Of a stretch of DNA of 64,000 nucleotides, positions 1 to 16,784 are shown piece by piece (the first letter of the stretch is position 1; each line of letters opens with the position of its first letter). Position numbers and translations under genes: made by a program. Below the pieces are notes generated by a model. That model ran no database searches and was not told the DNA's origin. It saw nothing but the letters and a program-made list of their open reading frames with translations. The DNA is taken from positions 118,236 to 182,235 of the forward strand of contig JAZQJV010000018.1 in the NCBI GenBank assembly GCA_045541795.1. Direction: 5' to 3'. Origin of the DNA: Patescibacteria group bacterium (lineage in GTDB: Bacteria; Patescibacteriota; Microgenomatia; UBA1400; PJMF01).

Positions 1-28
1 CTCAAATGTAGTGGCGGTAAACAACCCC

Positions 29-56
29 TTGACAAAACAAATATTTCTGGTATAAT
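29..56 (+). promoter_or_regulatory. sigma70-type promoter (TTGACA, 16-nt spacer, TGgTATAAT)
   Basis: TTGACA at 29-34, TG at 48-49, TATAAT at 51-56, read directly. Confidence 0.6.
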
Positions 57-62
57 CAGAGT

Positions 63-354
63 TGTTCTTTGATATTGATTGCCGCTGCCGATTGCATGGC
101 GGTTTGGCGATCCGATAAAGACAAAATCTGGTTTTGCAGGAGGTGGCGGCCAATGATTGTGCGTTTGATGACGACTATGATTACAGATTGGGCGAACATC
201 TAGCTCTCAAAAGAAGTGGGACGACAGATAGGAAAAATGCGCTTTTGGGCAGACTGATGGGCTCTACACTGTCAGTCTAGGAAGCAAAGCTGTACCATTG
301 CAAATTCGGAAATAAGGTTCAATTAGCCCCGGAAATAATCCCGGGGCTTTTTTT
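63..354 (+). ncRNA. candidate orphan transcript (unclassified ncRNA, or carrier of a 16-codon sORF at 153-203)
   Basis: Bracketed by the 29-56 promoter and the 325-354 terminator. The track lists no ORF here. It contains internal hairpins and an AGGAGG-ATG sORF. No family recognised. Confidence 0.3.
325..354 (+). terminator. intrinsic terminator
   Basis: 8-bp stem agccccgg/ccggggct, 7-nt loop, followed by a T7 run. Confidence 0.75.
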
Positions 355-388
355 ACACAGATACAGGCAGGTAAAACACACAGGTTAA

Positions 389-565
389 GTGGGTAAAGAA
401 TTATCTAGTAATCGCACTGAACACGTAATTTATTTGCTTGACGAGCCAACCACTGGTTTGCATTTTGAGGATGTACAGCGATTGCTTTCGATTTTAAGTT
501 CGCTGGTAGGACAAAACTCCAAGTCATGGACAGGTAAGTTTTTGGTCACTGAATTGGCGCGTTAG
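389..565 (+). pseudogene. uvrA: uvrA 3' relic (second ABC domain Walker-B region joined to the extreme C-terminus; most of the gene is missing)
   Basis: Translation is [58 protein letters not shown]. It matches the UvrA pattern ..[23 protein letters not shown]...LL..L..L.. and then the C-terminal S.TG.FL tail. The IEHNLDVIK...GPEGG segment is absent and an in-frame stop lies just upstream at 386-388. Confidence 0.7.
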
Positions 566-600
566 TCGCAGAGAGTAATGTTTAGTTTTTGTGATGAATT

Positions 601-622
601 ACCCCGACCTTACGGTCGGGGT
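601..622 (+). terminator. GC hairpin after the uvrA relic (possible terminator, weak U tract)
   Basis: accccgacc / ggtcggggt stem with a ttac loop. Confidence 0.35.
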
Positions 623-834
623 TATGGACAAATGTGATATGAATTATTTTGAACAATTATGTCTACTCAAAATTATAGTGACTACGCCCAGATTAACCTG
701 ATAACACCTATTGAATATGATCACTATTCAATTAGTTTGTTTAGGTTTTATCAATGTGAAAATTAATAAGTTGCCCAGCACGAGTTTGTTATAATCGGCT
801 TTAGGTTAATAATTTGTCTGGTCACCAGGCATAA

Positions 835-1374
835 GTGCCAACATTATTAACTGGAGGTTATATCACTTTTGCCTGGAAATCCATATGCGACCATCATGAC
901 TATAATCGTATTGATTTGCATGCCTTTAGACTGGACAATAGCTTTACTTATACAGTTTCACTTACAGTCAATTATGACAAGGTTAATCTTTTAGAGAAAC
1001 TGCCAGTCTTACCAAAGTTCGAACAATTATTTATAACTTTCAATCAACCACAAATGCTACTGACCGATACTTTATTGTGGCACGCTGATCGTTGTTACCA
1101 ATTTCAGGGACAAACATTCAATTATGTCCTCATCAGAGCACTGGTAAAAGCCAATGGAGAAATTCCCTGGAACGATCAGCTGCTGCTGATGTATGATCCT
1201 GGTCCTCTTCATCTAAGTAGCTCGAAAATAGATGATAGAAGTACTTTAATTTGTCGTGCTATAGATGACCTTAACTTGGAGCTCAAACAAAAACTTAAAA
1301 TGAATTTTACACCGATACACAGACGTAAAAATAAATTTATTAAATTTGATAAACAAATTATACTATCGACATAG
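835..1374 (+). CDS. hypothetical protein (possible OmpR/CadC-like winged-helix at the C-terminus)
   Basis: 179-aa ORF with a GTG start in the AT-rich region. The stretch ..RSTLICRAIDDLNLELKQKL...FIKF weakly resembles a Trans_reg_C recognition helix and wing. Confidence 0.4.
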   Translation: MPTLLTGGYITFAWKSICDHHDYNRIDLHAFRLDNSFTYTVSLTVNYDKVNLLEKLPVLPKFEQLFITFNQPQMLLTDTLLWHADRCYQFQGQTFNYVLIRALVKANGEIPWNDQLLLMYDPGPLHLSSSKIDDRSTLICRAIDDLNLELKQKLKMNFTPIHRRKNKFIKFDKQIILST

Positions 1375-1469
1375 ACTCACTTAGCTGGAGTTACTCTAGG
1401 CTCAGTTTTTGCTTCTCTGGTAGTTTAATATCCCTGTCTAGAAATTAGTCGAGGCTATTAAACGACCGC

Positions 1470-1679
1470 ATGAGACAGAGCACAATAGTAGTACCAGCTC
1501 GCACCGACATCGGGAAAAAATATCGTACTAGCTACGACCCTATATCAGAGCAGGACGTTCACGATTTTATTGCTGCCGTTAAGGCAGATAGTGGATGGGT
1601 ATTGAAGTTTGATGAGGCAAAACAAACAGCCAATGATTTAATAGAGTTGGCCAAATTAGTCAATAAATATCAGGAATAA
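1470..1679 (+). CDS. hypothetical small protein
   Basis: 69-aa ORF; no recognisable motif. Confidence 0.35.
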   Translation: MRQSTIVVPARTDIGKKYRTSYDPISEQDVHDFIAAVKADSGWVLKFDEAKQTANDLIELAKLVNKYQE

Positions 1680-1735
1680 CTGTCTTAAAAGTCTTGCATT
1701 TTTAATCAATTTGTGATATAAAGACCACATTAATT

Positions 1736-2824
1736 ATGACAAACACAAAAAAGATCCAGACAGTTACTAGTAACGATATGTCGATGTCTAATGATCAAGA
1801 GTATCGGGAATGGTTAGTCGACTTAAAAACAAGATATCAACATAGTCGCATTAAAGCATCTATAAAAATTAATTATGAGGTCATTTTTTATTACTGGTCT
1901 GTTGGTCGTGACATTGTGATTAAAAAAGCCGAATCAAAATGGGGTAGTGGTTTTTATGATAATTTGAGTCGCGATCTACGACGAGAATTACCTGGTATAC
2001 AGGGATTATCAAAAACAAATCTCAAATACATGAAGTACTTTTATGATCTTTTTCCAGATGTGTTTACTGATAAGTCAATTCGTCCACAAGTTGTGGACGA
2101 ATTGGAGCAAATACCTTGGGGACATATCCGATATATTATAGATAAGTGTCGCGGTGATCAACAAAAGGTGATATTTTTCATCAATAAGACCGTGGAAAAC
2201 AACTGGTCGAGAGCAATGCTGCTAAATTTCCTGGATACAGATCTTTACGAGAGGCAAGGGAAGGCGATTACGAATTTTACCAATAAGTTAGCTTCGCCTC
2301 AAGGAGAATTAGCTCAACAGCTTACCAAAGATCCTTACAGTTTTGACTTTCTTACTATGAGAGAAAACTATCAAGAAAAAGAGCTTAAGGATGCCCTGAT
2401 TGCTAATATTGAAAGATTTCTGCTGGAACTTGGCAAAGGTTTTGCTTATATGGGACGGGAATACCGCTTACAAATCGGTGAAACTGAAAAATTTATAGAT
2501 ATGCTCTTTTACAACACTGTCCTGCGTTGTTACGTGGTAGTAGAAGTCAAAGTGGAGAAATTTGAATCCGGACATTTAGGGCAATTGGGATTGTATGTGA
2601 CCGCGGTTAATCATCAGCTCAAAAACGAAACTGACAATCCCACTATCGGTCTGTTGATTTGCAAGAGCAAAGAGAATGTGGTGGCGAAATACTCGCTAGA
2701 AAGCATGGCGGTGCCGATCGGAATATCAGAATATGAGTTGCAAAAAATCTATCCCGCTGATTTCAAGAGTAGTTTGCCAACGATAGAGGAGATAGAGAAT
2801 GAGCTGGCTGATAATAACGATTAG
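1736..2824 (+). CDS. YhcG/DUF1016 family PD-(D/E)xK nuclease (paralog a)
   Basis: KAESKWGSGFYDNLSRDL, PWGHIRYI, FAYMGREYRLQIGE..FIDMLFYN..CYVVVEVK (D..E.K core), PTIGLLIC. A TTGCAT-17-TATAAA promoter lies upstream near 1693-1721. Confidence 0.85.
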   Translation: MTNTKKIQTVTSNDMSMSNDQEYREWLVDLKTRYQHSRIKASIKINYEVIFYYWSVGRDIVIKKAESKWGSGFYDNLSRDLRRELPGIQGLSKTNLKYMKYFYDLFPDVFTDKSIRPQVVDELEQIPWGHIRYIIDKCRGDQQKVIFFINKTVENNWSRAMLLNFLDTDLYERQGKAITNFTNKLASPQGELAQQLTKDPYSFDFLTMRENYQEKELKDALIANIERFLLELGKGFAYMGREYRLQIGETEKFIDMLFYNTVLRCYVVVEVKVEKFESGHLGQLGLYVTAVNHQLKNETDNPTIGLLICKSKENVVAKYSLESMAVPIGISEYELQKIYPADFKSSLPTIEEIENELADNND

Positions 2825-2845
2825 TAAAAATTAAGGTAATAACAT

Positions 2846-4273
2846 ATGTTCACACCTTTTGGCAAGAATCTCGACAATCTAAGTTTTGAAGACATTCAAA
2901 AATTTTGCGATAAAGGTGTTGCTGAAAATATTTATATTGATTACAAGAAAGAAATTAATCAGAAGAATGATCATCTTGCCAAAACTATTGCGTCCTTTGC
3001 TAATACACATGGCGGCTGGATAATAATTGGAGTAGAAGATAAGAATGATCGTCCAAACTCTCCATTTAACGGGATTGACTATACAGATGGAATAGAGTCT
3101 AGTATAACTACTATAATTGTTGACAATATTTATCCATATGTCGAAGTTACATCAAAGGTTATTGTCAACCATGATAATAAAAGAGCTTTTGTTGTAGTGT
3201 ATGTCCCAGAAAGTCATAAAACACCACATTGGATTAACAGCAGAAGGGATCTTTATATTAGAGCTAATACTAGAACAAAAACTGGCAGAGATGATATTAA
3301 GAATAAAAACGAAGACTTGGATATTTACGCCACTTCTGAAAATTGGGAATTCTTAAGAAATAAAAGGGAAAGGTCTCAACAACTGGCAATAGAATTGGAA
3401 ACAGCTTTAAATCGTTTGTTTCTATCATATAAAGATAAAGAAGAACGTTTGTGGTATCAAAATAACGAAAAAGTTAAAAATAATCCGTCGCTGCAAAGTA
3501 TAATATCTGAAGATATGGATACACTCGACTGTGCAGATCCAAGTATCACAACAATTAAAAATAGGCGAGAGTTCAGAAGCGAATGTTATCATGATAACAT
3601 TAGTATTATTGTCCAGCCAGTTTTCCCATCATACGCTATTTCTTCACCGCGTGATTTGAGAGAACACTATTCGTCTAACAGCGGTGCAAACCTCACTAAC
3701 GTTGGTTCACTTGACGAAAACTACAAACTTGATTATTTTCAAAACGGGATAGTAACTTTTTTTACTCCCGACAATAAGACAGGCAACCATTGCGCATTTT
3801 TTGCTCAAGACATCTTTGGTTCGTGCATGGTAAAACACAAGATAGTTCAACACAATCGAAAGAAGATTGATAACTACCAGGGTTATGAAGTGCCGCCAAA
3901 TAGTAACATTATTGACTTTGAATACTTGATAGTTTATATTGAACAATTTTTAAAATATGCATCAGTTTTTTATAAACAAATTGGTTATTTAGGCGAACTT
4001 AGACTTAAGGTGGTCATGAATGTGCCAGAATGGTCATATATGATAATTCATGATTCAACCAAGAATTTTCCGCTTGCATATAGTAATTCTGATAAATATT
4101 TTCTTTGGGAGAAAGTTTTTATTAATGCTGATTTTGTTAACGATCAAGAACGAAATAAAATACTAAATACTATGTATGAAAGTATTGGATTCTTTTTTAA
4201 TTGTGACGAAATTCCTAAACAAATAATTAATAATCTGAGAAAGAATCCAAATAATGCTAATGAGCAACTTTAA
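2846..4273 (+). CDS. AlbA_2 (Schlafen-like, putative DNA-binding) domain protein with an uncharacterised ~330-aa C-terminal region
   Basis: The N-terminus reads ENIYIDYKKEIN...LAKTIASFANTHGGWIIIGVED...FVVVYVPES...YIRANTRT, which fits the AlbA_2 pattern. It starts 21 nt after the DUF1016a stop. Confidence 0.75.
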   Translation: MFTPFGKNLDNLSFEDIQKFCDKGVAENIYIDYKKEINQKNDHLAKTIASFANTHGGWIIIGVEDKNDRPNSPFNGIDYTDGIESSITTIIVDNIYPYVEVTSKVIVNHDNKRAFVVVYVPESHKTPHWINSRRDLYIRANTRTKTGRDDIKNKNEDLDIYATSENWEFLRNKRERSQQLAIELETALNRLFLSYKDKEERLWYQNNEKVKNNPSLQSIISEDMDTLDCADPSITTIKNRREFRSECYHDNISIIVQPVFPSYAISSPRDLREHYSSNSGANLTNVGSLDENYKLDYFQNGIVTFFTPDNKTGNHCAFFAQDIFGSCMVKHKIVQHNRKKIDNYQGYEVPPNSNIIDFEYLIVYIEQFLKYASVFYKQIGYLGELRLKVVMNVPEWSYMIIHDSTKNFPLAYSNSDKYFLWEKVFINADFVNDQERNKILNTMYESIGFFFNCDEIPKQIINNLRKNPNNANEQL

Positions 4274-4297
4274 CTTCCCGTCTCAAAAACTCCCCAA

Positions 4298-4364
4298 TCA
4301 TGCTATAATCAACCTCAAGTAACTGGGTTCGGATTTCCCGCCAGAAACCACCAAAAAATAGGAT
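4298..4364 (+). repeat. promoter-plus-leader repeat, copy 1 (TGcTATAAT 4301-4309; conserved 29-nt core 4324-4352)
   Basis: The core tgggtTcggatttcccgccagaaaccacc differs at one base from the copy at 6859-6887. Both cores lie 14 nt after their -10 box. No ORF follows this copy. Confidence 0.7.
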
Positions 4365-4423
4365 ATTGAAGTACGCAAATTATATCCATATAAAAACGAT
4401 ATTTTAAGCAAATTATTTGGTAT

Positions 4424-5590
4424 TTAATCATTATTGTTAATGTTTAAAAGTAATTGTAATCTTTTCATGATTTCATCGAATGTTATTATTATATTTCTGG
4501 AAACACTCTTTCTGAATAAGTTGAACGATCTTTCTTGTTCTTCAAGAAGTCCTGATTTGTTACCGATAATAATTATTCCTAATGGATCAAGAGCATTCAA
4601 GCGGTTATCTTCATAATCTTTTCCAATAAGAGTTGAAAAATTATCACTCGCAATTCTAATTTGATTTTCTAGTTGAACTATCGCACCACTCAATTCGTCA
4701 GACATGGAATAGCACACATTCTCTCCAACGGCATCTGAATTGCCTCTATATTGATGTCCAATAATGGCACTTTGCGGTGTTTTAATTTCAATAACTGCAA
4801 AGCTTTTATTTGAAAGATTTTGCAAAAGAAAATCAGCGGCGACTCCTCCTTGGCCGTTTCTTCCACGACTGTTCTTTCCTCCTAGATATGTTTCGCCATT
4901 CAAATAACAGACTGGACAATAAAACAAACTCTCAAAAATCCACTGATTTTCTGTGAAGAATGCTTGCCAAAAGTTTTCTTTTTGGTTATTATTCATATTT
5001 TTCGCAATTGTATTAATTGCATTCTGCAATTTGGCTAGTAATATAATATTTTCTAATACTCTGATGTTTCCTTTTCCTAAATCTCTTAACTTGGTAATAA
5101 CCATTTCCTTATTTTTAATATCGCCAATTTGCAATAAAACACTTTCTATATTTCCTTCTCCAATAGATATTGTTGTGGTTCCAAATTTAATACCGTTTTC
5201 ATTTAGAGTCTCTCTAATTAACGGTAAATGCTCAAAGAGATTTTTCATGGCTTCACCATCAAGGTTGAGATCATAAAATTCTCCTTTTCTTAACTTAGTA
5301 ACAGATAGGCCTTTATAACTTTGCCAGTTGTCATTAATTCCTTTTCTTTCCCATCTGAAACCTCCTCGCAATGGTTTGTCAGTTTGAGATGGGTCTACCC
5401 ACTTTGGGTAAAAAAGTAATCTTGTGCTTTCAGTTTCTTTTAGTATAATTGGGGAAATATCAGCGGTTTTATTGGAAGTAGATTTTATTGTTATATCTTT
5501 TGATTCTTTCTGTTTGTCTGTAAATCCCTTGCGAGGTAGCGTGAAATCTATTTCTCCTGAAATATTGCTAAAATCATATTTTGGAGTCAT
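4424..5590 (-). CDS. sduA: Shedu-like DUF4263 (SduA-type) PD-(D/E)xK nuclease
   Basis: The C-terminal half reads NFWQAFFTENQWIFESLF...GVAADFLLQN...FAVIEIKTP...SDELSGAIVQLENQI, which fits the DUF4263 pattern at ~390 aa. The track start is a TTG at 5602. The ATG at 5590 preceded by GAAAG is more likely. Confidence 0.7.
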   Translation of the reverse strand: MTPKYDFSNISGEIDFTLPRKGFTDKQKESKDITIKSTSNKTADISPIILKETESTRLLFYPKWVDPSQTDKPLRGGFRWERKGINDNWQSYKGLSVTKLRKGEFYDLNLDGEAMKNLFEHLPLIRETLNENGIKFGTTTISIGEGNIESVLLQIGDIKNKEMVITKLRDLGKGNIRVLENIILLAKLQNAINTIAKNMNNNQKENFWQAFFTENQWIFESLFYCPVCYLNGETYLGGKNSRGRNGQGGVAADFLLQNLSNKSFAVIEIKTPQSAIIGHQYRGNSDAVGENVCYSMSDELSGAIVQLENQIRIASDNFSTLIGKDYEDNRLNALDPLGIIIIGNKSGLLEEQERSFNLFRKSVSRNIIITFDEIMKRLQLLLNINNND

Positions 5591-5608
5591 GGTGGCTTTC
5601 AATCAAAA

Positions 5609-6736
5609 TTACCTATTTGCTTCTAGCAACTTTTTCTCTATCTCCTCTATCGTCGGCATCGTTCCTTCCACCTTTTGCGGATACAACTTCTCCAGTTCGT
5701 ACTCCGAAATTCCCAATGGTTGATTGCTAGATTCCAAAGCATACTGAGCGATTAAATTATCTTTTTGCTTGCAAATGAGCAAACCGATAGTCGGATTATC
5801 TCGTCCTTCTTTTTGTAAAAGGTGATTGCAAGAAACCACGTAACCGCCAAGTTGCCCCAAATCGGCAAAATCAAATTCGCCAATTTTCACTTCAACCACA
5901 ACGTAACAAGACAACTGTAAATTATAGAAAAGCAAATCAATAAATTTTTCTTTCTCGCCGATTTGCAGTCGATACTCTTTTCCCACATACGCGAAGCCCG
6001 TGCCAAGTTCTAATAAAAATTTGGTTATATTTTCTAGCAGGGCATCTTTTAATTTACGTTCATTGTATTTATCGGTAATACCAGTAAAAGCAAAATTATA
6101 TGGATCTTTTGTTAATTCCTGAGCTAAATCGCTAGTAACATTGGGTAAGGTTTTGCCAAAATTCGTCAATGCTTTTCCTCGTCGATCATAAAGATCGGTT
6201 TCAATAAAATTGAGTAGCATATCTCGGCTCCAACCATTTTCTATTGTTTGGTGAACAAAAAAGAGTGCTTTTTGTGGTTCTGTTTTGAATTTATCAATTA
6301 ACAGCTTATGATGGCCCCACGGAACAGAAAAAATGTCGCTTTCAATTTTCTCAATGACTTGCTGAGTAATTACATTACTTTCTATTTGCTCCCCAACTTG
6401 GGGAGCAATTTCGAAATATTGATGGTAAAGTATATAAAAGTTTTTCATGTACAACAAATTTGTCGGCGAAAAACACGTTGCGTCAGGATTGAGAGTTTTA
6501 AGGTCTCGGCTGAGATTTTTCATGAAACCACTGCTCCATTTACTTTCGGCTTTCATTACCACAATGTCTCTGCCCAAATCATAGTAAAAACGAAGCATTT
6601 CCCGATTAACTTTTACTGCTGCTCTAACTTGGCTCAAGCGATAACGAGAAGAAAGCTTCCCAATCCACGAGGCATAATTTTCATCTAGAATTGTTAGTGA
6701 CTGAACTTGTTTTGCAACCTGTTTTTTCTCTGTCAT
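5609..6736 (-). CDS. YhcG/DUF1016 family PD-(D/E)xK nuclease (paralog b)
   Basis: KAESKWSSGFMKNLSRDL, PWGHHKLL, FAYVGKEYRLQIGE..FIDLLFYN..CYVVVEVK, PTIGLLIC. It is colinear with 1736-2824 over its whole length. Confidence 0.85.
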   Translation of the reverse strand: MTEKKQVAKQVQSLTILDENYASWIGKLSSRYRLSQVRAAVKVNREMLRFYYDLGRDIVVMKAESKWSSGFMKNLSRDLKTLNPDATCFSPTNLLYMKNFYILYHQYFEIAPQVGEQIESNVITQQVIEKIESDIFSVPWGHHKLLIDKFKTEPQKALFFVHQTIENGWSRDMLLNFIETDLYDRRGKALTNFGKTLPNVTSDLAQELTKDPYNFAFTGITDKYNERKLKDALLENITKFLLELGTGFAYVGKEYRLQIGEKEKFIDLLFYNLQLSCYVVVEVKIGEFDFADLGQLGGYVVSCNHLLQKEGRDNPTIGLLICKQKDNLIAQYALESSNQPLGISEYELEKLYPQKVEGTMPTIEEIEKKLLEANR

Positions 6737-6815
6737 AGTGGCTATTACTTATAGCACAATAACGCTATTTTGTCAATACTGATAATTAATTATTATTGGC
6801 ATTTATTTTCAATTC

Positions 6816-6903
6816 TTGCAAAAACAACTTCATACTGTTATAATCAGTTTCAAATAATTGGGTGCGGATTTCCCGCCAGAAACCACCCCAAAAAGATGGG
6901 ATT
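6816..6903 (+). promoter_or_regulatory. promoter-plus-leader repeat, copy 2 (TTGCAA 6816-6821, 17-nt spacer, TGtTATAAT 6836-6844; core 6859-6887)
   Basis: Consensus-like promoter followed by the conserved core tgggtGcggatttcccgccagaaaccacc. Possible helix GGGTG 6860-6864 / CACCC 6884-6888 and inner hairpin GCGG-atttc-CCGC. It precedes the zinc-ribbon/TM2 gene. Confidence 0.6.
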
Positions 6904-6922
6904 ACTGCGATGAAAGTGAAAC

Positions 6923-7256
6923 ATGACAGATGAAAAAACAAAATACTGTAAACATTGCGGTTCGCTTATTGATGTAGAATTGCATAATATGCCCGAAGTG
7001 TGGCAAGCAGGTCGAACAAGTAAAAGCCGAGCTTCCAAATGTAGTGATCAATAACAATAACACCAATTCGAATATAAACTATGCTGGTGCTGTGGGGAGC
7101 GGGCGGCCTATCAATAAGTGGATAGCTTTGGGTTTATGTCTTTTTCTGGGCATATTCGGTGCTCATAAGTTTTATGAAGGAAAGATTGGCATGGGAATAT
7201 TGTATTTGTTTACATTTGGTTTGTTTAGTCTTGGTTGGTTTTTAGATATTTTTTAA
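6923..7256 (+). pseudogene. zinc-ribbon + TM2 domain protein, interrupted by a +1 frameshift
   Basis: Frame A from ATG 6923 gives MTDEKTKYCKHCGSLIDVE... Frame B gives ..CIICPKCGKQVEQVKAELPNVV.. and continues into the 7044-7256 ORF with the TM2 motif (INKWIALGLCLFLGIFGAHKFYEGK). The two CxxC halves of the ribbon therefore sit in different frames, and a TAG at 6975-6977 blocks frame B upstream. Confidence 0.6.
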
Positions 7257-7355
7257 TCCTAACAAAGCCTAATCCTTATTACATATAATACTTTTACATT
7301 TGCGTTTTTATTATAACTACGTTATAATAACACAAACTTTAAGGAAAATATAAAC

Positions 7356-8429
7356 ATGAAAAATCATCGAAAATTCCATCCTCGCATTATTGTCAATATC
7401 ATCTGTCTTTTTTCATTGGCATTATCTCACATTATTTTTTCGCTACCGATTAAAATAATTGATACAGTTTATGCCGTCGAGCGTGAAACTGTCACTGTGA
7501 GCCGTGTGATTGATGGTGATACAATCGTTTTGAATGATGGGCGAAAGGTTAGATATATTGGAATTGATACACCAGAAACAGTTCATCCAACAAAAAATGT
7601 GCAGTGTTTTGGGAAACAAGCCAGTAACAAAAATAGAGAATTAGTCCTTGGTAAAACTGTGGAACTGGAAAAAGATATCAGTGAAACTGATCGCTATGGA
7701 CGTTTACTCAGATATGTATATTTGGATGGCGTCATGATTAATCATAAATTAGTCGCTGAAGGTTATGCCACAACCGTAACCTATCCTCCAGATGTTAAGT
7801 ATAAAGAAGAATTCTCCAAAGCTCAGGCGCAGGCAAGACAAGCAAGACTTGGGCTATGGGGTAATGAATGCAACGAAAGCAGCAGCACTCACGCATCCTC
7901 AAACAACAATGCTAGCTCAAATACAAATAAAATGGATTCGTCAAGCACATCGTCATCATCTCAAAACAACAAAACTCAAAATGACCATGAAGGCAACCAA
8001 GCTTCTACTCAACCAACTAACACTAGCGCACAAAAATGTCCATCAAATTGTAGTGAGGCCAAAAGCATGGGAATGGTTAACATTACACCGTCGCATCCAT
8101 GCTGGCAAGAAAAATTTGATGGCGATAAAGATGGCGTGGGTTGTGAAAGTGACAACCGGTCTACCAATACAAAAACAACTAACAAATCCAATAATGTCAA
8201 TAAACAGACCAGTGCTACGCCGGCACCCACGCCAGTGCCAAGTCGCGCCCCAACGCCAGAACCAACCCCACCGCCTACGTCAGTGCCAGCTCCAGCTGCG
8301 CCAACCCAATCTTGTCCAAATAACTGTACCCAAGCAAAGGCAATGGGAATGGCCAATATGACACCTTCTCATCCTTGTTGGCAATCTAAATTTGACCGAG
8401 ATAAAGACGGTATTGGTTGCGAAGACTAG
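7356..8429 (+). CDS. secreted/anchored thermonuclease (SNase family) with two C-terminal Excalibur Ca-binding domains
   Basis: VIDGDTIVL..GRKVRYIGIDTPE...RYGRLLRYVY...LGLWG, plus two copies of CP.NC..AK.MGM.N.TPSHPCWQ.KFD.DKDG.GCE separated by a PT-rich linker. It has an N-terminal hydrophobic anchor. Confidence 0.85.
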   Translation: MKNHRKFHPRIIVNIICLFSLALSHIIFSLPIKIIDTVYAVERETVTVSRVIDGDTIVLNDGRKVRYIGIDTPETVHPTKNVQCFGKQASNKNRELVLGKTVELEKDISETDRYGRLLRYVYLDGVMINHKLVAEGYATTVTYPPDVKYKEEFSKAQAQARQARLGLWGNECNESSSTHASSNNNASSNTNKMDSSSTSSSSQNNKTQNDHEGNQASTQPTNTSAQKCPSNCSEAKSMGMVNITPSHPCWQEKFDGDKDGVGCESDNRSTNTKTTNKSNNVNKQTSATPAPTPVPSRAPTPEPTPPPTSVPAPAAPTQSCPNNCTQAKAMGMANMTPSHPCWQSKFDRDKDGIGCED

Positions 8430-8438
8430 AAAGTAAAA

Positions 8439-9119
8439 ATGTCACAAAAAGATAATAGCAAACATTCTTGCAGAATAATCATGGCCGCATTGCTAGTGCT
8501 TCTAAGCATTGCATTGCTGCATAAATCTTTTTTTGCTGCCGCCTTCACTATCTGCTACGCATATCTCATCTCGCCACTATCAATTCAATTGGTAAGTAAA
8601 ATATGTAAGAAAGAAAATGAGAAATGGCTATATTCAACCATGACTTTTATTTTTGCTCTTTGCTGGATGACCACAATTCAAACTGGTCAGCCACAAATGG
8701 ATAATGTGTTAACGCAAAATAGTGAAAAAAACGCATCGCTAGAGAATGCGTCAACACAAAATAATGAAAAAATCGCTTCACTAGAAAAAGAGCTCCAATC
8801 AGTTAAGAACGAAAGAGATGAAATTCAAGCAAACAACCAAAAAAGAGCCATTTCAGCTGCCAAATCATATTTGGAATACAGTCCAATGTCGAGCCGAGAG
8901 TTGATTAAGCAACTCGAGTTAGAAGAATTTTCTCATGAAGACGCAGCATACGGTGTAGAGCATGCTGATATCAATTGGAACGATCAAGCATCACGGTCAG
9001 CAGTCCTCTTTATTGAGTTTGCTAATCCGTCAACCGAAGAATTAAAAAAACAACTTGAGTACGAAGGTTTCACAAGCAACGAAATAAAATTCGCCATTGA
9101 GCATAATAGTAATGGGTAA
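8439..9119 (+). CDS. membrane protein with two Ltp-type (host cell surface-exposed lipoprotein) repeats
   Basis: AISAAKSYLEYSPMSSRELIKQLELEEFSHEDAAYGVEH and ASRSAVLFIEFANPSTEELKKQLEYEGFTSNEIKFAIEH fit the Ltp repeat pattern. It also has N-terminal TM segments and a short coiled-coil repeat. Confidence 0.7.
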   Translation: MSQKDNSKHSCRIIMAALLVLLSIALLHKSFFAAAFTICYAYLISPLSIQLVSKICKKENEKWLYSTMTFIFALCWMTTIQTGQPQMDNVLTQNSEKNASLENASTQNNEKIASLEKELQSVKNERDEIQANNQKRAISAAKSYLEYSPMSSRELIKQLELEEFSHEDAAYGVEHADINWNDQASRSAVLFIEFANPSTEELKKQLEYEGFTSNEIKFAIEHNSNG

Positions 9120-9148
9120 ATGACTCTATTGCTTCCAGTAAGGAAAGT

Positions 9149-9490
9149 ATGCCATCTACCAAAAGTTACCTTAATCACCTTCTAACTCAATTCTCGCAGT
9201 TGGATGATATTTCTTACCGCTCGATGATGGGGGAGTATATCATTTATTTCAAAGGCAAAGTAGTAGGTGGAATTTATGATGATCGATTTTTGGTCAAGAC
9301 AACAAAATCTGCACTCGCGTTGATGCCAAACACAAGCAAAGAATTACCATATCCCGGTGCGAAAGAAATGTTGTTGGTAGACGATACGGGAGACAAAGTA
9401 TTTTTACGCGAGCTGCTGACCGCGATATATGAGGAGCTGTCAGTGGTAAAGAAAAAAGAAAGCACATTAAAACGTTTATTAACGAATTGA
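9149..9490 (+). CDS. TfoX N-terminal domain protein
   Basis: L..L..L..ISYRSMMGEYIIYFKGKVVGGIYDDRFLVK fits the TfoX_N pattern. Confidence 0.65.
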   Translation: MPSTKSYLNHLLTQFSQLDDISYRSMMGEYIIYFKGKVVGGIYDDRFLVKTTKSALALMPNTSKELPYPGAKEMLLVDDTGDKVFLRELLTAIYEELSVVKKKESTLKRLLTN

Positions 9491-9502
9491 CATTCATTGT
9501 CC

Positions 9503-10165
9503 TCATCTTTGACGTCTCGCTCTCTCCATATACTCTCTTTGCACCCGCATAAATAATTCCTTATCTGCCAAAAGCGTCCGGATCTCATTTAAAAAACGCT
9601 CGTACTCCGGATCAGAAAAAAAGTATTTCGCATAGCCGCCCTCACCAAATTTTTCTTTCAGGTGTTGCCAACTTCTCACAAACAATTGCTCGTCACTAAA
9701 ATCCGGATGTAAATTTTTACCATACACAAAACTTCGATACAAACAATCTTCTACGCTCGTATTTCTGTCCGCCGTGGACACAATTTTCCCGTACACGCTC
9801 CGGGGCTCGTGATTGCTTGAAGCACGATGATCTTCGATTGCCTCTTTAATCAGTTTTAATTGTTTACCGCTAAAAAAATCAGGCAAATGCTTATCCTCAC
9901 TCATCATCCGCGCAGAAATAATCTCATGCTTGGCTGGATCAATGTGATGTCCCAGATCATGATAAGCAGCCACAGTGTAGACAATGTCTAAGTTAACGTC
10001 GGTCAGTTTTTGCGCCAAGTTAATACTTCTTTCAATGACATATTTAATGTGTTTTAAATTATGAGCTGGCTCATTTTGAGCGTACTGCGGGAAAACATTT
10101 TGCTGGATGTATGTTTGTAATTTTCTATTGACGGTAGGATAAAAATTATTTTCTAACATAAACAT
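9503..10165 (-). CDS. HD-domain phosphohydrolase
   Basis: AAYHDLGHHID and STADR motifs. The start is moved to the ATG at 10165, which lies 6 nt after a TATAAT box (plus-strand 10172-10177), so the gene is probably leaderless. Confidence 0.75.
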   Translation of the reverse strand: MFMLENNFYPTVNRKLQTYIQQNVFPQYAQNEPAHNLKHIKYVIERSINLAQKLTDVNLDIVYTVAAYHDLGHHIDPAKHEIISARMMSEDKHLPDFFSGKQLKLIKEAIEDHRASSNHEPRSVYGKIVSTADRNTSVEDCLYRSFVYGKNLHPDFSDEQLFVRSWQHLKEKFGEGGYAKYFFSDPEYERFLNEIRTLLADKELFMRVQREYMERARRQR

Positions 10166-10269
10166 TACTATATTATAACACGAGCAGACATTTTGAAAGC
10201 TCAAAAATATAGCGTCCAGTTTTTACAACTTTCGCTCATTTCACCTTACCGGTATGGTATAATACCCCT

Positions 10270-10695
10270 ATGCAAAAATCAAATAATCTTATTTCAATTA
10301 TTTTGTGTGTGATCGCGGTGGTGAGTCTCGCTCTCAATGTCTACTGTGTCAATCAAAAACACACTCAGCCGGCGCCATCAAGTCAACTTGCCGAGGCACA
10401 GGCGGCCTACAAACTTTACATCGTCATCCCAGATAGTGTCACTGATACAGATAATTACATCCGTGAGCTGGAAACAATACTTGCCAATCGTGTCCCCGGC
10501 TACACGATGTATCCCACTCGTGGCGGCTCGCATGAAGACGACGGCAGCATGAGTTATCAGACCACTTTGGTCTGCGAGCTTTACGGCACTGATAAACAAA
10601 CTGTCACCCAAATTGCCCATCAAGTGATGACCAGTTTTAATGTGAACAGTGTGCCGGTGGCAACTCTTAGTTCACAGTGGGAAATAATTCGTTGA
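10270..10695 (+). CDS. hypothetical membrane-anchored protein
   Basis: 141-aa ORF with an N-terminal TM segment. TGgTATAAT (10255-10263) lies 6 nt before the ATG. Confidence 0.55.
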   Translation: MQKSNNLISIILCVIAVVSLALNVYCVNQKHTQPAPSSQLAEAQAAYKLYIVIPDSVTDTDNYIRELETILANRVPGYTMYPTRGGSHEDDGSMSYQTTLVCELYGTDKQTVTQIAHQVMTSFNVNSVPVATLSSQWEIIR

Positions 10696-11833: not shown

Positions 11834-12024
11834 ATTTTCTCCTGGTGTCGCGTTTCGGGTTTGTACCTAGGTAATTCCAATTTCCTTTTCGCATTTTTTA
11901 TGGTATAATCACGCATCTTACTCACTTTCACGGTCAGATCATCACGGTTTTGCTCGTGGAGGCGGGTGAAATCAGATCTTTGACAAGTGAAGTGAAATCA
12001 TACATCCTTAAAGGAGGAATTTCC

Positions 12025-14049
12025 ATGAAGTTGAAGTTTTGGGTTTTGAGTTTGGCAGCAGTGTTGTGTTTCCCCGCTCTTGCGTCTGGTGCGAGCATCG
12101 AACAGATCTTGGCTAGCATGAGTACTAGCGATAAGATCTGTCAGCTCCTGATCCCAGCCTACCGCAAGACGGCCAGTAATGACGCCACTGTCTTAAGCAG
12201 CGACGCGGCGGCACTCATCAGTCAGTATCCTTTTGGTGGTTTTATCGTTTACGGCGAAAATCTTGTCGACAATGACGCCGGCGTCCGGTTCATCCATGAC
12301 GTCCAACGTGCTAATATCAGCGCTGATACCGGCCGGCCGCAATTGCTCGTAATGACCGATCAGGAAGGAGGCCTAGTCTATAGGCTTACTCACGGCACAA
12401 GCGGCATCTCGCCGATGGCTATGGGTGCGGCTAGAGACAGCACTGCCACTCAGACGATCGCCAAAATCCTAGGCACTGAAGTGTCGGCCCTCGGCATTAA
12501 TTGTAACCTCGCTCCAGTACTCGACGTCGTCACCAATCCGCGCGGTTATATCGGCCTGCGGGGTTTCGGCATTGATCCGCAGCTGGTAGCCGATCAAGCC
12601 AGTAGCTATCTGCGCGGCCTGCGGGAGGCGGGTGTCCTAGGGGCAGTCAAACATTTCCCCGGCACAGGCAGCGCTCAGGAAAACACAGATGGGGCCAATT
12701 TGCCCGTCGTCATTAGTAAGACCCTTGAAGAGCTAGAGTCTTGCGATCTCATTCCTTTCCGCCAGGTGATCAAGCAGGGCCTGGTAGACATCGTGATGGT
12801 TTGCAATGACAGTTTTTCAAGTATAGAAACGCGCCAATTTACCGGCTCTGACGGCCAGCAATATGCCCTCCCTGCTTCAGTTTCCCCGGCGATTATCAAT
12901 GACCTGCTGCGCTGTGGGCTCGGCTTTGACGGCCTGGTGCTCACTGATGCACTCTTGGGCACAGTCATGGCCGCACAGTTTAGTGCCGTGCAAGTCTTAG
13001 AGTTGGCTTTGCAGGCAGGCGCCGACATGATGCCGTACGCTTTAGACCTCAACTCAGTCGCGAGTGTGGCGGCATTCCAGCAGGCCCTGGAGACTTTCAC
13101 TGCACGGGTGGACGCGGATCAACAATTGCAAGGTCTACTAGACACTGCTGTCAGGAGGATTTTGACGTTTAAAAGTCGCCATGAACTCCTGACTCCGTAT
13201 GCTCGCTCAGATTCTTGGGCGGCTAGTCAGGCACAGACGGTACTCCAGAATGTCAGCAACCAGGCTCATCACGACCTCCAGTGGCCGGTTGCTTTGAGTG
13301 CGGTCACGCTGGTGGAAAACCGTAATCAGGCTTTGCCGCTTAGCGGTGATGAGAGAGTGGCCATCCTCTATTATTACGCTAGTCAGGAAGCATCAGTGCA
13401 ACTTGCTCTTGACCGGCTTGTAGCTGACGGTCAGCTGACAAGCAGCCAGGCGGCAGACGTCCTTAATCTAGACGTCCACGACGAAAACTTAAGCGAACTG
13501 CTCACCGGCGTGGACACCGTAGTCATTTTAAGCTCTGTCTATTATGAATCGGAGTTGAGCCCAGATTCTCCCTCTCCTTACAGCGACGAAATCAGTATCG
13601 TGCTGCCACTCCTGTCAGAACTCGCTGGTCGTGGAGTCAAAATCATTCACGCCAGTTGTCATCTTCCTTACGACATCGGGCTGTATCTGGGGCGAGTGGA
13701 TGCCATCCTGGCTTGCTATTTGGCCAACGGGATCTCCCTTCCTATCACCACACCAGATAATCAGCCTCGTTACGGCGTTATGGTACCGGCACTCGTTTAC
13801 AAGCTTTTTGATCAGCGGGGAGATTTTTCCGCCCGACTGCCCGTAGACATTTACACTATTAATGGCGGGCAGTATCAGCTAGACGATGTCCTTTTGTCTC
13901 GCGGCTGGGGTCTGACACTGGCTGGTGACGTCATCACTGATCCGGTAGCGACTCACCAGAGCTCTAGCGGCGGCTGTAATGCTTTGTCGGGATTGTGGCT
14001 GTGGACGGGCATTCTTGTTTTCGCCTCTAGCAAAAAGTACCACTGCTGA
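12025..14049 (+). CDS. glycoside hydrolase family 3 (NagZ-like beta-hexosaminidase/glucosidase), secreted
   Basis: MTDQEGG and KHFPGTGS motifs. AAGGAGG lies 7 nt before the ATG at 12025 and a signal peptide MKLKFWVLSLAAVLCFPALASGA follows. The track start at 11950 is probably an upstream extension. Confidence 0.8.
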   Translation: MKLKFWVLSLAAVLCFPALASGASIEQILASMSTSDKICQLLIPAYRKTASNDATVLSSDAAALISQYPFGGFIVYGENLVDNDAGVRFIHDVQRANISADTGRPQLLVMTDQEGGLVYRLTHGTSGISPMAMGAARDSTATQTIAKILGTEVSALGINCNLAPVLDVVTNPRGYIGLRGFGIDPQLVADQASSYLRGLREAGVLGAVKHFPGTGSAQENTDGANLPVVISKTLEELESCDLIPFRQVIKQGLVDIVMVCNDSFSSIETRQFTGSDGQQYALPASVSPAIINDLLRCGLGFDGLVLTDALLGTVMAAQFSAVQVLELALQAGADMMPYALDLNSVASVAAFQQALETFTARVDADQQLQGLLDTAVRRILTFKSRHELLTPYARSDSWAASQAQTVLQNVSNQAHHDLQWPVALSAVTLVENRNQALPLSGDERVAILYYYASQEASVQLALDRLVADGQLTSSQAADVLNLDVHDENLSELLTGVDTVVILSSVYYESELSPDSPSPYSDEISIVLPLLSELAGRGVKIIHASCHLPYDIGLYLGRVDAILACYLANGISLPITTPDNQPRYGVMVPALVYKLFDQRGDFSARLPVDIYTINGGQYQLDDVLLSRGWGLTLAGDVITDPVATHQSSSGGCNALSGLWLWTGILVFASSKKYHC

Positions 14050-14088
14050 TTTCACCAGTCTAGCCAAACTAGACATCTTGTCAATCGC

Positions 14089-14112
14089 GCCGCCCTGTAT
14101 AGGGCGGCTTTT
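14089..14112. terminator. bidirectional intrinsic terminator between convergent genes
   Basis: gccgccct / agggcggc stem with a gtat loop, followed by tttt. Confidence 0.65.
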
Positions 14113-14125
14113 ACGGTGTTAATTA

Positions 14126-15724
14126 CTATTTGGCCCCAAGTTTAGCTTCACTAGTGGCTGGTTTTTGCTCCCACAAAATAAACTCTTCTCCCCGCTGCAG
14201 GATTTGATAATTACTCAGCAATGCTGCCGGGAAAAAATAACCTTCATCATCTATCGTATAAGCAGCATACTCATATTCGGGAGCGTATTCATGCTGCATC
14301 TCACTGCTACCGTAGCGTGTTACTATCAGGTCTGGTGTCCGCTTGGCTATCATTTCGATGATCTCACTAAATACTTCTGGCGCCCCGGCGCGTGATAGTG
14401 TTGGCACCATGTAGTAACGCCCAGCATTGACAGCATTTGTCCCGTGGAAAAACGTATACCAACTATACGGATACAAAGCCAAAAGTTTTGGCGCGGGCGC
14501 ATAGCTCATGATGGCCGTCATGACATCTTGTTTTTCGGCGTAGATAAAATCCCTCGTGCTCTGGTAATTACGACTCAAAACAGCTGCTGTCGCCAGCACG
14601 CAGATCACACTATAAGCGGCAAATTCTGGCAAGTGAGGTTGCAAAATTTTCTCGTCCAATACCAATATTAGCATCAGCGCCAAAATCCCCATCACCCAAA
14701 ACCAATCATAAAAATGCCCGAAAACACCGTTAAAAACGATCCCGCCAACCAACAATGAGATCAGCAACACTTTAAACTGTACCGGGCACTTTTTCAAAGT
14801 TAAAAATAGCACGCTCACGAGTAAGTACACGAGCGACCAGGTGTGATTGGCTGGCAAATTCCACATCAAAGCCAATTGCTCCATGATTTTGAGGATTTTA
14901 GCCACCAAACTACCACCGGCTTGATTACCATAAGCACGAAAGGGAAGAAGAAAATAATGATAAATCAAATCAGCCCAAGCTCCATGAACGGTATACCAGG
15001 CAGCAACCAACAAACACACGCCCAAAAAACCGCCACCAAAGCCGGCCCAGAGCCTTATTTGGTCGCCCGCGCGCCGCTTAGAAATCCAGCCTAGGTAACC
15101 CAGTGTCACCAAAAAAATCCCAATATCTGTGTACTTACACCAAAAAACAACTCCAGCTAGCAAGCCCAAAATGACACTAGCTACCAATTTAGACTTGCTA
15201 GGCAATTTGGTCCAGTTTTGCGCCAGGAGCACACATCCCAAAGTGCATGTTAAAAGCAAACTCCCGATCGAACCCAAAGCGGGTGCAATCGGCTGTGGCG
15301 GTAGACCTAGATATACCAATACTGTGGCTAAAAGCGCCAGAACCAGCCGATATTTTTCTTGTACCCGCACTGACACTAAAATTTGGTGCAGCAAAAAGAA
15401 ATTGACTAAAGCGAGACTGCATTGCACCAAAAACATCCCCCGGAAGACATCACCAGGGTAAAGCAGACCTATAAGACCCCACCAATACATCCATATCGGG
15501 CCTTTCATGTCAAAAAAGTCCCGGTGTGGGAGCTCTCCACGCCGGATAAAATCACTATAAGTAGCGTAAATGCCAAAATCATCACCCAGACCAAAAACTG
15601 ACTGCAACGGCGAGAAAGGACTGGCAAGCGTCACCACGCCTAAAATAGCAAAGCAAGTAATGAAAATACCGAAACACAGCCGAAATTTTGTGTTTTCTTG
15701 CCAATAAGTAATTAGTTTGTGCAT
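14126..15724 (-). CDS. polytopic membrane protein, probable GT-C fold glycosyltransferase
   Basis: More than 10 predicted TM stretches, with an acidic loop DDFGIYATYSDF after TM1. The start is moved to the ATG at 15724 (MHKLITYW), 7 nt after TGaTATAAT on the minus strand. Confidence 0.5.
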   Translation of the reverse strand: MHKLITYWQENTKFRLCFGIFITCFAILGVVTLASPFSPLQSVFGLGDDFGIYATYSDFIRRGELPHRDFFDMKGPIWMYWWGLIGLLYPGDVFRGMFLVQCSLALVNFFLLHQILVSVRVQEKYRLVLALLATVLVYLGLPPQPIAPALGSIGSLLLTCTLGCVLLAQNWTKLPSKSKLVASVILGLLAGVVFWCKYTDIGIFLVTLGYLGWISKRRAGDQIRLWAGFGGGFLGVCLLVAAWYTVHGAWADLIYHYFLLPFRAYGNQAGGSLVAKILKIMEQLALMWNLPANHTWSLVYLLVSVLFLTLKKCPVQFKVLLISLLVGGIVFNGVFGHFYDWFWVMGILALMLILVLDEKILQPHLPEFAAYSVICVLATAAVLSRNYQSTRDFIYAEKQDVMTAIMSYAPAPKLLALYPYSWYTFFHGTNAVNAGRYYMVPTLSRAGAPEVFSEIIEMIAKRTPDLIVTRYGSSEMQHEYAPEYEYAAYTIDDEGYFFPAALLSNYQILQRGEEFILWEQKPATSEAKLGAK

Positions 15725-15817
15725 ATTTGCTATTATATCATACCAAGTATTCTTCACGCTTAGCAATTAGCGCTCGCTTCAAACTACCCAAGATAGTCGC
15801 TTTCGCCCGGTTGGGTC

Positions 15818-15845
15818 TTGACAAATAGCGATTTTATGGTATAAT
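15818..15845 (+). promoter_or_regulatory. consensus promoter of infA (TTGACA, 16 nt, TGgTATAAT), leaderless geometry
   Basis: TTGACA 15818-15823 and TATAAT 15840-15845. The ATG at 15852 is only 6 nt downstream. Confidence 0.65.
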
Positions 15846-15851
15846 AAGAAT

Positions 15852-16175
15852 ATGGGTAAGGTACAAGCACATAAAAGAGCAGAAAAAGCCAAAAGACAGG
15901 TGAATTTTCAGCTGGATAAAGTCAAGAATCCAGACATGTTTGAATTTGAAGGCATTGTGGAGGACTGTCTGCCCAATACCAGTTTCCGCCTTAGCGTCAC
16001 CAGTTCCTCGCTCGAACCGCTTGTAGGTAAAAAACTGCTGGCGACACTAGCCGGCAAAATGCGCCTCTACCGCATCCGGGTGATGCCCGGTGATCAGGTC
16101 AAAGGATATGTGTCAAAATATGATCTAACTAAGGCAAAAATCACCTATAGATCCACAAAAAAGACTTCGGCGTAA
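15852..16175 (+). CDS. infA: translation initiation factor IF-1 with a ~35-aa basic N-terminal extension
   Basis: FEGIVEDCLPNTSFRLSV...GKMRLYRIRVMPGDQVKGYVSKYDLTKAKITYR matches the IF-1 S1-like core. Confidence 0.85.
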   Translation: MGKVQAHKRAEKAKRQVNFQLDKVKNPDMFEFEGIVEDCLPNTSFRLSVTSSSLEPLVGKKLLATLAGKMRLYRIRVMPGDQVKGYVSKYDLTKAKITYRSTKKTSA

Positions 16176-16245
16176 ATTGGATGTACATTCTTGATAAATT
16201 GTGATATAATAGCGATTCTTAACAGGGAAAAAATGAGAAAGAAAA

Positions 16246-16359
16246 ATGAAAGTCAGATCGTCAGTTAAACCACTCTGCAATAAGTGTAAAGTAGTCAAGC
16301 GTCGTGGCGTCGTGCGTGTAGTCTGCACGAATCCAAAACACAAACAAAGACAAGGTTAA
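16246..16359 (+). CDS. rpmJ: 50S ribosomal protein L36
   Basis: Not in the track (37 aa). Translation is [37 protein letters not shown], translated by hand. Confidence 0.9.
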
Positions 16360-16367
16360 AGGTCAAT

Positions 16368-16778: not shown

Positions 16779-16784
16779 TAGACT

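Follow-up and report, generated by a model that had tools for sequence, protein, structure and literature searches.

A putative anti-phage defence island of low GC content, with twin DUF1016-led operons and a junction repeat, in a Patescibacteria group bacterium

General features of the island

We analyzed a 64,000-nt stretch (hereafter referred to as the window) of contig JAZQJV010000018.1 of the Patescibacteria group bacterium assembly GCA_045541795.1. Close to its left end lies a low-GC block of accessory genes, which is probably a chromosomal anti-phage defence island of approximately 9-9.7 kb, assembled from lower-GC donors and remodelled by recombination without a dedicated recombinase. 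Genes of a Shedu nuclease (SduA), a prokaryotic Schlafen protein (pSlfn) and two candidate defence nucleases of the PDC-S02 (DUF1016/YhcG) type cluster there within 5 kb, accompanied by a gene resembling an Ltp superinfection exclusion determinant (Table 1). These components belong to known (Shedu, pSlfn) or candidate (PDC-S02) families; only two features go beyond routine annotation, namely a 73-nt junction repeat with a crossover inside it and a pair of operons that each begin with a DUF1016 gene.

Nucleotide composition and borders

The initial annotation had singled out positions 560-9500 as an AT-richer region. The GC content of this region is 0.361, versus 0.480 for positions 10401-64000. 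In 1-kb sliding windows the mean GC value is 0.360 inside the block and 0.480 outside (standard deviation 0.029 in each case), and values of 0.40 or less occur in 71 of 80 such windows inside and in none of the 527 outside. Two-state maximum-likelihood segmentation placed the low-GC block at 621-10300 (GC 0.362), which improves on a homogeneous model by 232 nats. The mononucleotide-normalised tetranucleotide signature, determined in 3-kb windows, correlates with that of the background at r 0.46-0.58 within positions 1-7500, 0.68-0.76 for 6001-10500 and 0.80-0.93 elsewhere. The GC content of third codon positions (GC3) is 0.25-0.39 in the genes located at 835-9119, 0.40-0.42 in the TfoX_N and HD genes, and 0.45-0.58 in core genes. 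The AT-rich block is borne out by the GC windows, the segmentation and GC3 alike, and its GC and tetranucleotide profiles are both distinguishable from those of the flanks. As for its borders, the right end proposed earlier coincides with the end of the strain-variable content (approximately 9500, see below), whereas the compositional edge lies at approximately 10300 and takes in the HD gene.

The remainder of the window is ordinary chromosome, carrying rpsM, rpsK, rpsD, rpoA, rplQ, rplM and rpsI, as well as the genes for an ATP-dependent ligase, DnaG, LepA, initiation factor 2 (IF-2) and NusA. The single tRNA gene of the window (tRNA-Glu, 23817-23893; ARAGORN) is 13.5 kb away from the block. 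Searches of the open reading frames (ORFs) of positions 1-10300 against Pfam, PHROG and NCBIfam revealed no integrase or transposase domains and no phage structural, replication or integration genes. No direct repeat enclosing the entire block and no adjacent tRNA were found, and the scanned island ORFs included no restriction-modification (R-M) genes. When compared with phage and plasmid records, the island DNA showed similarity limited to single DUF1016 genes. The earlier failure to recognise an integrase, transposase or flanking tRNA is in agreement with these results. The accompanying statement that the mode of acquisition is not visible holds for the recombinase gene, none having been seen, but recombination scars (described below) partly fill this gap. 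The content was also said to be phage-related, which is true at the level of domains (Ltp, SNase) but does not extend to phage structural or integration genes.

Twin DUF1016-led operons

The island core (approximately 1700-6740) is composed of two convergent bicistronic operons, each with a DUF1016/YhcG gene in the first position: (i) operon 1 (plus strand), in which DUF1016-1 is followed after 21 nt by the pSlfn gene, and (ii) operon 2 (minus strand), in which DUF1016-2 is followed after 6-18 nt by the Shedu gene. All domains named in the initial annotation (two DUF1016, AlbA_2, Shedu-like, a broken TM2, SNase, Ltp and TfoX_N) were found again with Pfam, and the PADLOC search that it had proposed returned SduA as well as PDC-S02 twice (E approximately 1e-150).

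The two DUF1016 proteins, the predicted nucleases of operons 1 and 2, share 53% amino acid sequence identity (BLASTP), and their genes are approximately 67% identical in nucleotides. The DUF1016_N plus YhcG_C architecture spans the full length of both paralogues. PD-(D/E)xK motifs can be discerned by eye, FIDMLF...VVVEVKV and FIDLLF...VVVEVKI, and are mutually aligned; no PDB relative was found for the DUF1016 proteins, so these motifs were read from the translations alone. DUF1016 genes are enriched beside R-M and BREX genes, and a neighbourhood of other defence genes, as observed here, is usual for the PDC-S02 family (PMC9881135), which both paralogues match over their full length. PDC-S02 is, however, listed as a single-gene candidate; in the window there are two copies, each the first gene of a two-gene operon and each followed by another kind of nuclease. 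The idea that DUF1016 forms an obligatory two-gene system with Shedu or Schlafen was considered, but the gene neighbourhoods of more distant homologues do not support it.

The 3' ends of both DUF1016 genes carry a 32-nt inverted repeat (2775-2806 and 5627-5658; 88% complementary). This repeat may have arisen as a patch of gene conversion, or it may allow the pSlfn-Shedu segment to be inverted. Programmed inversion between these ends was dropped after neither an invertase nor an inverted variant came to light.

Shedu and Schlafen nucleases

The second gene of operon 2 encodes a type I Shedu protein, a type defined by a long N-terminal regulatory/clamp domain preceding the nuclease (10.1101/2023.08.10.552762). 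In the database gene call the protein has 388 aa (P0007), which by arithmetic places its start at 5590. Both of its domains align with the solved SduA structure (PDB 8TI8; E 1.1e-36): residues 34-156 correspond to residues 4-127 of 8TI8, i.e., to the long N-terminal domain of type I, and the D...ExK motif is in register (AADFLL...VIEIKTP in the window protein versus LVDFLY...LIEIKTP in 8TI8). It resembles the SduA proteins of Bacillus cereus and Escherichia coli in its SduA_N and SduA_C (DUF4263) domains, a length of approximately 390 aa and the aligned D...ExK, but it is about 40 residues longer at the N-terminus than 350-aa relatives and follows DUF1016 rather than R-M genes. The closest homologues share 50-54% identity with it. 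Parcubacteria, Saccharibacteria and Clostridia names are found among the homologues of the Shedu and HD proteins; together with short housekeeping proteins, they suggest a host of the CPR/Patescibacteria type. Shedu is an experimentally established defence family (10.1101/2023.08.10.552762). Judging from homology, the operon 2 protein would act as a tetramer that holds on to free DNA ends and introduces nicks into linear phage DNA (10.1101/2023.08.10.552762, 10.1101/2023.08.10.552793).

The second gene of operon 1 encodes what had been called an AlbA_2 protein, for which the name of a putative prokaryotic Schlafen nuclease is appropriate. Such proteins are recognised by the catalytic Ex4(E/D)xK motif and by a PF04326 domain that exceeds 100 aa; pSlfn is an experimentally established defence family, whose members are phage-activated tRNases with sensor domains of varying type fused to them (Perez Taboada et al., 2026; PMC13056530). 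In the window protein the PF04326 domain covers residues 27-145 (profile positions 1-115 of 118; E 6.9e-17), and the Ex4DxK motif is intact (E27-NIYI-D32-Y-K34, preceded by A). An alignment of 11 family sequences showed that E27, Y33 and K34 are nearly invariant. The protein further resembles the pSlfn family in having the Schlafen nuclease fold, a fusion to a non-nuclease domain and a defence-island setting. The C-terminal region of 330 aa has no Pfam match, only 7 relatives, and weak AdoMetDC/TBP-like matches. By analogy with the family, the pSlfn of operon 1 would cut tRNA anticodon arms once its rare C-terminal domain senses a phage component (PMC13056530). A scan of viral contigs (IMG/VR) with pSlfn and DUF1016-1 detected no close relatives.

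Strain variability of the island

Related loci were identified in the assembly GCA_017431295.1 (L005) and in the JGI 3300011008 sample, from which both L008 and L018 originate. Locus L018 shares 98.3% nucleotide sequence identity with positions 14003-28800, so it represents a strain of the same species. The L005 ribosomal protein S11 falls into one cluster with that of the window at 90% identity or above.

Locus L005 shares positions 1017-4347 with the window (82% identity). It contains one copy of the junction repeat, no Shedu and no DUF1016-2, and downstream of the shared part carries unrelated aldo-keto-reductase fragments and a cation-efflux gene. Its module is also of low GC content (0.32-0.39) and adjoins host-like DNA (0.47-0.50). 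Locus L008 shares positions 1694-4345, followed by genes for a MazG-like protein, a GIY-YIG protein, an SLFN-group-3-type helicase, a TfoX_N protein and further genes. Only the DUF1016-Schlafen pair is common to all three loci; the other genes differ on both sides. In the presence/absence comparison that the initial annotation had suggested, the block is accordingly not syntenic among the relatives.

Using clusters at 90% identity, drawn from about 15 billion proteins by exact-sequence look-ups, we found that the 69-aa ORF, Shedu, DUF1016-2, SNase, Ltp and TfoX_N proteins are limited to this genome (singletons). The HD, hyp141, GT87 and mem546 proteins and all ribosomal proteins have relatives at least 90% identical in other samples. 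From the singletons up to TfoX_N and the shared clusters from HD onwards, it follows that the strain-variable part ends between these two genes (approximately 9500). The accessory character ascribed to the block earlier is supported by these singletons, together with its foreign composition. The HD, hyp141 and GT87 genes each have a JGI relative on a 3,050-bp contig, presumably one shared contig. A genome contig scan with the GT87 protein gave only Chloroflexia matches of 31-34% identity and no synteny information, and a metagenome contig scan with mem546 found nothing.

Two further observations concern the relatives. In L008 (2862-4974) the Schlafen-nuclease gene is followed by the MazG-like, GIY-YIG and Schlafen-group-3-type helicase (PF09848, 3e-53) genes; neighbouring but separate genes thus encode the counterparts of both halves of a eukaryotic SLFN11-like protein. 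T4SS_pilin genes (PF18895) occur in the window (approximately 28260-28541, minus strand), in L018 (14251-14631) and in L008 (11863-12303), with 45-66% amino acid sequence identity across overlapping frames (best match 57%). Since they are located both in the conserved core and near the L008 island, they are multi-copy genes and do not indicate that the island holds a conjugative element.

The junction repeat

Two copies (A and B) of a 73-nt repeat bracket the Shedu-DUF1016-2 cassette. Six copies are known: two in the window, one in L005 and three in L008. A profile built from these six detected no others in the 64-kb window or in 19 other loci, and the repeat is absent from phage and plasmid records (BLAST) as well as from viral and metagenome contig collections (pattern scans). 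Each copy starts downstream of a plus-strand gene, at a distance of 7-136 nt from its stop codon. All six contain an invariant extended -10 box (TGnTATAAT), after which comes the conserved stretch TGGGTTCGGATTTCCCGCCAGAAAyCACC; in copy B and in one L008 copy, TTGCAA is present 17 nt upstream. The palindromic TTGCAA of copy B (6816-6821) forms a -35-like box on both strands, directed on the plus strand toward the TM2 gene and on the minus strand toward DUF1016-2 and Shedu, which suggests a shared divergent promoter region at this copy.

Comparison with L008 localizes a crossover. Per 100-nt window, identity between the two loci is 80-92% across DUF1016-1 and 97-100% across the pSlfn gene. In the first half of the repeat (copy A) there is 1 nt difference up to ...TATAATCAACCTCAAGT, and then identity is lost; in its 3' half (GGGTTGTG...) the L008 copy is similar to the other copies of that locus. 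The loss of identity midway in the repeat and this similarity place a crossover inside the repeat; a second one lies near the DUF1016-1/pSlfn boundary. The identity of copies A and B, only 75-79%, is too low for a fresh target-site duplication; every cassette seems to have a copy of its own. We infer that cassettes may have been exchanged by homologous recombination at this promoter-like repeat at their junctions.

Other identities of the repeat were examined and rejected: (i) a structured RNA or riboswitch, as there was no Rfam match at the gathering threshold or at E <= 1 and no covariation support by RNAalifold (the consensus fold has a covariation term of +0.44 and 2 compensatory pairs), (ii) a tRNA 3' fragment or att site, suggested by the GGTTCGGAT...CCACC stretch, where ARAGORN finds nothing and the sequence departs from the T-loop consensus, and (iii) an integron attC, given the lack of inverted symmetry, of a supported fold and of IntI among the ORFs of 1-10300. 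As in integron cassette arrays, successive gene groups are each followed, after their stop codon, by a repeated element of 60-80 nt. The arrangement differs from such arrays by the missing IntI, attC-like palindromic symmetry and conserved fold, by multi-gene, invertible cassettes and by the similarity of the repeat to a sigma-70 promoter; the locus is not an integron. A more far-reaching proposal is that the repeat is a dedicated cassette-junction element of an integrase-less array, in which defence operons with their own promoters are swapped by homologous recombination and DUF1016 serves as a generic front partner of interchangeable nucleases (Schlafen tRNase or Shedu DNase). We consider this doubtful and put it forward only tentatively.

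The left edge

At its left edge the island adjoins a dead 3' remnant of uvrA, in which nothing is preserved upstream of approximately 395 and about 40 internal codons are missing. Locus L005 has an intact UvrA C-terminus at the matching place (1-372; host-like GC of 0.50), and L008 joins uvrA (at ...GLHF) straight to the region upstream of DUF1016-1. Positions 387-466 of the window share 96% identity with L008 20-99, and positions 395-507 share 79% identity with L005 67-179. The 9-nt sequence TTGCATTTT flanks a 1.23-kb segment of the window (at approximately 460 and 1693) that is absent from L008, where the 9-nt sequence occurs once. This pattern is what a deletion mediated by microhomology, or the same event in reverse, would leave behind. 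Such deletions may have been a second route of remodelling, and the island may occupy a recombination hotspot, its site in a relative being immediately downstream of uvrA. As in other defence islands and hotspots, clustered defence genes of deviant composition are combined with cassette replacement between conserved flanks and no dedicated integrase. The differences are an island-family-specific 73-nt repeat at the junctions with a crossover inside it, and an anchor gene, uvrA, of which only a remnant is left.

Directly to the left of the uvrA remnant, positions 28-356 constitute a candidate small RNA or leader-peptide unit. It is composed of a perfect sigma-70 promoter (29-56; TTGACA-N16-TATAAT with TG), a stretch of about 295 nt that contains no long ORF, and, at 325-348, a strong intrinsic terminator followed by a T run. 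Within it, a 16-codon ORF (approximately 153-203; MIVRLMTTMITDWANI) is preceded by an AGGAGG site. The unit folds better than shuffled sequences (z -2.85), matches no Rfam family, and was not found in a viral contig scan with this 5' unit.

Other genes of the island and its surroundings

Table 1. Features of the low-GC block and its left edge, by position in the window
Feature	Position	Strand	Evidence
Dead uvrA 3' remnant, left island edge	389..562	+	tblastn with L005 UvrA C-terminus, E 3e-22
179-aa ORF (hyp179)	835..1374	+	no Pfam, PADLOC, PHROG or NCBIfam match
69-aa ORF (hyp69)	1470..1679	+	no family match; singleton at 90% identity
DUF1016-1, predicted YhcG-type PD-(D/E)xK nuclease, PDC-S02; operon 1, gene 1	1736..2824	+	Pfam YhcG_C 7.6e-60, DUF1016_N 4.3e-34; PADLOC 3.3e-150
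pSlfn, N-terminal AlbA_2/Slfn nuclease domain and ~330-aa C-terminal region; operon 1, gene 2	2846..4273	+	Pfam SLFN_AlbA_2
Repeat copy A	4280..4352	+	promoter-like TGnTATAAT, then conserved TGGGTTCGGATTTCCCGCCAGAAACCACC; holds L008 crossover point
Type I Shedu nuclease SduA (predicted); operon 2, gene 2	4424..5602	-	Pfam SduA_C (PF14082) 9.2e-22, SduA_N (PF21407) 7.4e-12; PADLOC 1.3e-68
DUF1016-2, predicted YhcG-type nuclease, PDC-S02; operon 2, gene 1	5609..6736	-	Pfam YhcG_C 7.5e-57; PADLOC 5.3e-150
Repeat copy B	6816..6888	+	TTGCAA-N17-TATAAT with upstream TG, immediately upstream of TM2 gene
Frameshifted zinc-ribbon and TM2 membrane-protein gene	6923..7256	+	Pfam TM2 3e-17
SNase with two Excalibur Ca-binding domains, secreted or membrane-anchored	7356..8429	+	Pfam SNase 2e-28, Excalibur 3.8e-21
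Membrane protein with two Ltp repeats	8439..9119	+	Pfam Lipoprotein_Ltp (PF07553) 6.5e-19, two stretches; singleton
TfoX_N protein, last strain-variable gene	9149..9490	+	Pfam TfoX_N 3.7e-07, borderline (30.6 bits, cut-off 30.1)
HD-domain phosphohydrolase	9503..10204	-	Pfam HD 6.7e-09; GC3 0.40

The genes to the right of the operons, for the SNase-Excalibur nuclease, the Ltp-type protein and TfoX_N, are probably accessory genes with a role at the cell surface. The protein with two Ltp repeats matches PHROG 4980 ('superinfection exclusion'; 6.1e-28) and may hinder the entry of phage DNA. It shares with the Ltp of Streptococcus phage TP-J34 the two repeats and a full-length match to superinfection-exclusion PHROGs. 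No lipobox ([LVI][ASTVI][GAS]C) can be read at its N-terminus, where there are hydrophobic helices; in contrast to the phage protein, it has transmembrane helices in place of the lipobox and is encoded on a chromosome with no prophage genes nearby. The adjacent SNase protein has a readable hydrophobic N-terminus and an NCBIfam NucI-like match (2.4e-40) below the family cut-off.

Upstream of operon 1, the C-terminal 124 aa of the 179-aa ORF are 70% identical to an L005 ORF, and the gene is absent from L008; the region of the 69-aa ORF likewise aligns to L005 and is absent from L008. The former was considered as a winged-helix regulator, which was rejected: there was no Pfam match even at E <= 1, and the AlphaFold single-sequence model was unusable (pLDDT 34.8). 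Three-frame translation revealed a one-base frame break in the TM2 gene near 6975, which makes it either a pseudogene or the product of a sequencing indel. The TfoX_N protein shares 66% amino acid sequence identity with the product of an L008 island gene, which is itself followed by a repeat copy. Homologues of the HD protein (60-68% identity) are named Saccharibacteria and Clostridia, and the context of the best one (P0097) is Firmicute-like, without synteny with the window. The HD gene looks like an older acquisition at the right island margin, because it is conserved, together with the linked hyp141 and GT87 genes, in the sister strain, yet lies within the low-GC block.

Beside the island, a GH3 glycoside hydrolase gene (11950-14049) has a GC content of 0.537 and a GC3 of 0.58 and is a singleton at 90% identity. 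Contigs of the sister strain appear to break on both sides of it: L018 begins only at 14003, and the 3,050-bp contig carrying HD, hyp141 and GT87 is too short to extend into it. The GH3 gene may be a second, high-GC, strain-specific insertion. Elsewhere in the window we noted a protein with an ALK/LTK glycine-rich domain (34473-35684; PF12810, 6.6e-34) and two large ORFs (1221 and 572 aa; 40472-45725) without a Pfam match at E <= 1e-5.

Alternative explanations

Several points weigh against a defence island of this kind. The anti-phage role and the nuclease activities are predicted from homology, and our literature search found no experimental paper on DUF1016/PDC-S02, which makes it a candidate defence gene only. 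Pairing of DUF1016 with a partner is not general in the neighbourhoods of more distant homologues. The closest Shedu homologues (L009-L014) are situated, without DUF1016, between hsdM and hsdS in type I R-M operons; they overlap these genes, and their other neighbours are RhuM, DUF4145 or Fic. Such a location is already described for 602 of 5,499 Shedu genes (10.1101/2023.08.10.552793). Distant pSlfn homologues (27-30% identity) occur after a TIR protein, or alone near a serine recombinase. The role assigned to the repeat is based on a small number of events, given only six known copies in three loci. DNA scavenging or regulation, rather than defence, may be the function of the SNase, TfoX_N and HD proteins.

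An unlikely explanation is that the block is a decayed integrative mobile element (prophage remnant, integrative and conjugative element, or genomic island), whose integrase and att sites lie outside the window or were lost and whose cargo the defence genes are. As the visible sequence starts only 560 nt to the left of the island, an integrase just outside is conceivable, and the Ltp, SNase, DUF1016 and HD proteins all have PHROG matches. The absence of integrase, transposase, phage structural and replication genes from the ORFs of 1-10300, of a direct repeat around the whole block and of an adjacent tRNA argues against such an element, as do the restriction of phage and plasmid similarity to single DUF1016 genes and the lack of close relatives in IMG/VR. 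In L008 the DUF1016-Schlafen pair is located approximately 9 kb from genes of an rve_3 transposase, a type IV secretion system (T4SS) pilin and a ParE toxin, and the serine recombinase near one distant Schlafen homologue would also fit; T4SS pilin genes, however, are present in the core of this genome as well, at approximately 28.3 kb.

We regard it as highly improbable that the AT-rich block comes from another organism through an assembly or binning chimera. The link between island and core (10.3-14 kb), a further point against the preferred reading, is seen only in the contig of the window, and in the sister strain (98.3% identical) the contigs end at approximately 14.0 kb (14003) and probably at 11.9 and 9.5 kb; contig breaks are, however, expected at strain-variable regions. 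Locus L005, from an assembly sharing S11 with the window at 90% identity or above, independently joins the module to the uvrA end and a His_Phos gene in host-like DNA (GC 0.47-0.50). The uvrA remnant of the window matches both L005 and L008, and the Schlafen gene is 97-100% identical to the copy of L008, which comes from the same sample as L018.

Hardly credible, finally, is a nucleic-acid scavenging or competence locus, in which the nucleases and TfoX_N would help a bacterium with a reduced genome to take up DNA and salvage nucleotides: the secreted SNase-Excalibur nuclease, the TfoX_N protein and short housekeeping proteins hinting at genome reduction (e.g., the 480-aa IF-2) would suit it, but Shedu and pSlfn are established defence families (10.1101/2023.08.10.552762; PMC13056530), both here cytoplasmic in type, the strain-specific singletons are unlike a core salvage pathway, and DUF1016 is enriched beside R-M and BREX genes (PMC9881135).

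Significance

The defence island described here leaves current concepts unchanged and is a good specimen more than a surprise. It is a compact, well-delimited island from an uncultured, probably reduced-genome bacterium of a group in which phage defence has been little described. It places a member of the recently validated pSlfn family, with a very rare C-terminal domain, beside Shedu, and its junction repeat with the mapped crossover is a checkable example of the exchange of defence cassettes without a visible recombinase. The two natural operons combining DUF1016 with an effector offer a chance to learn whether PDC-S02 nucleases act alone or with partners.

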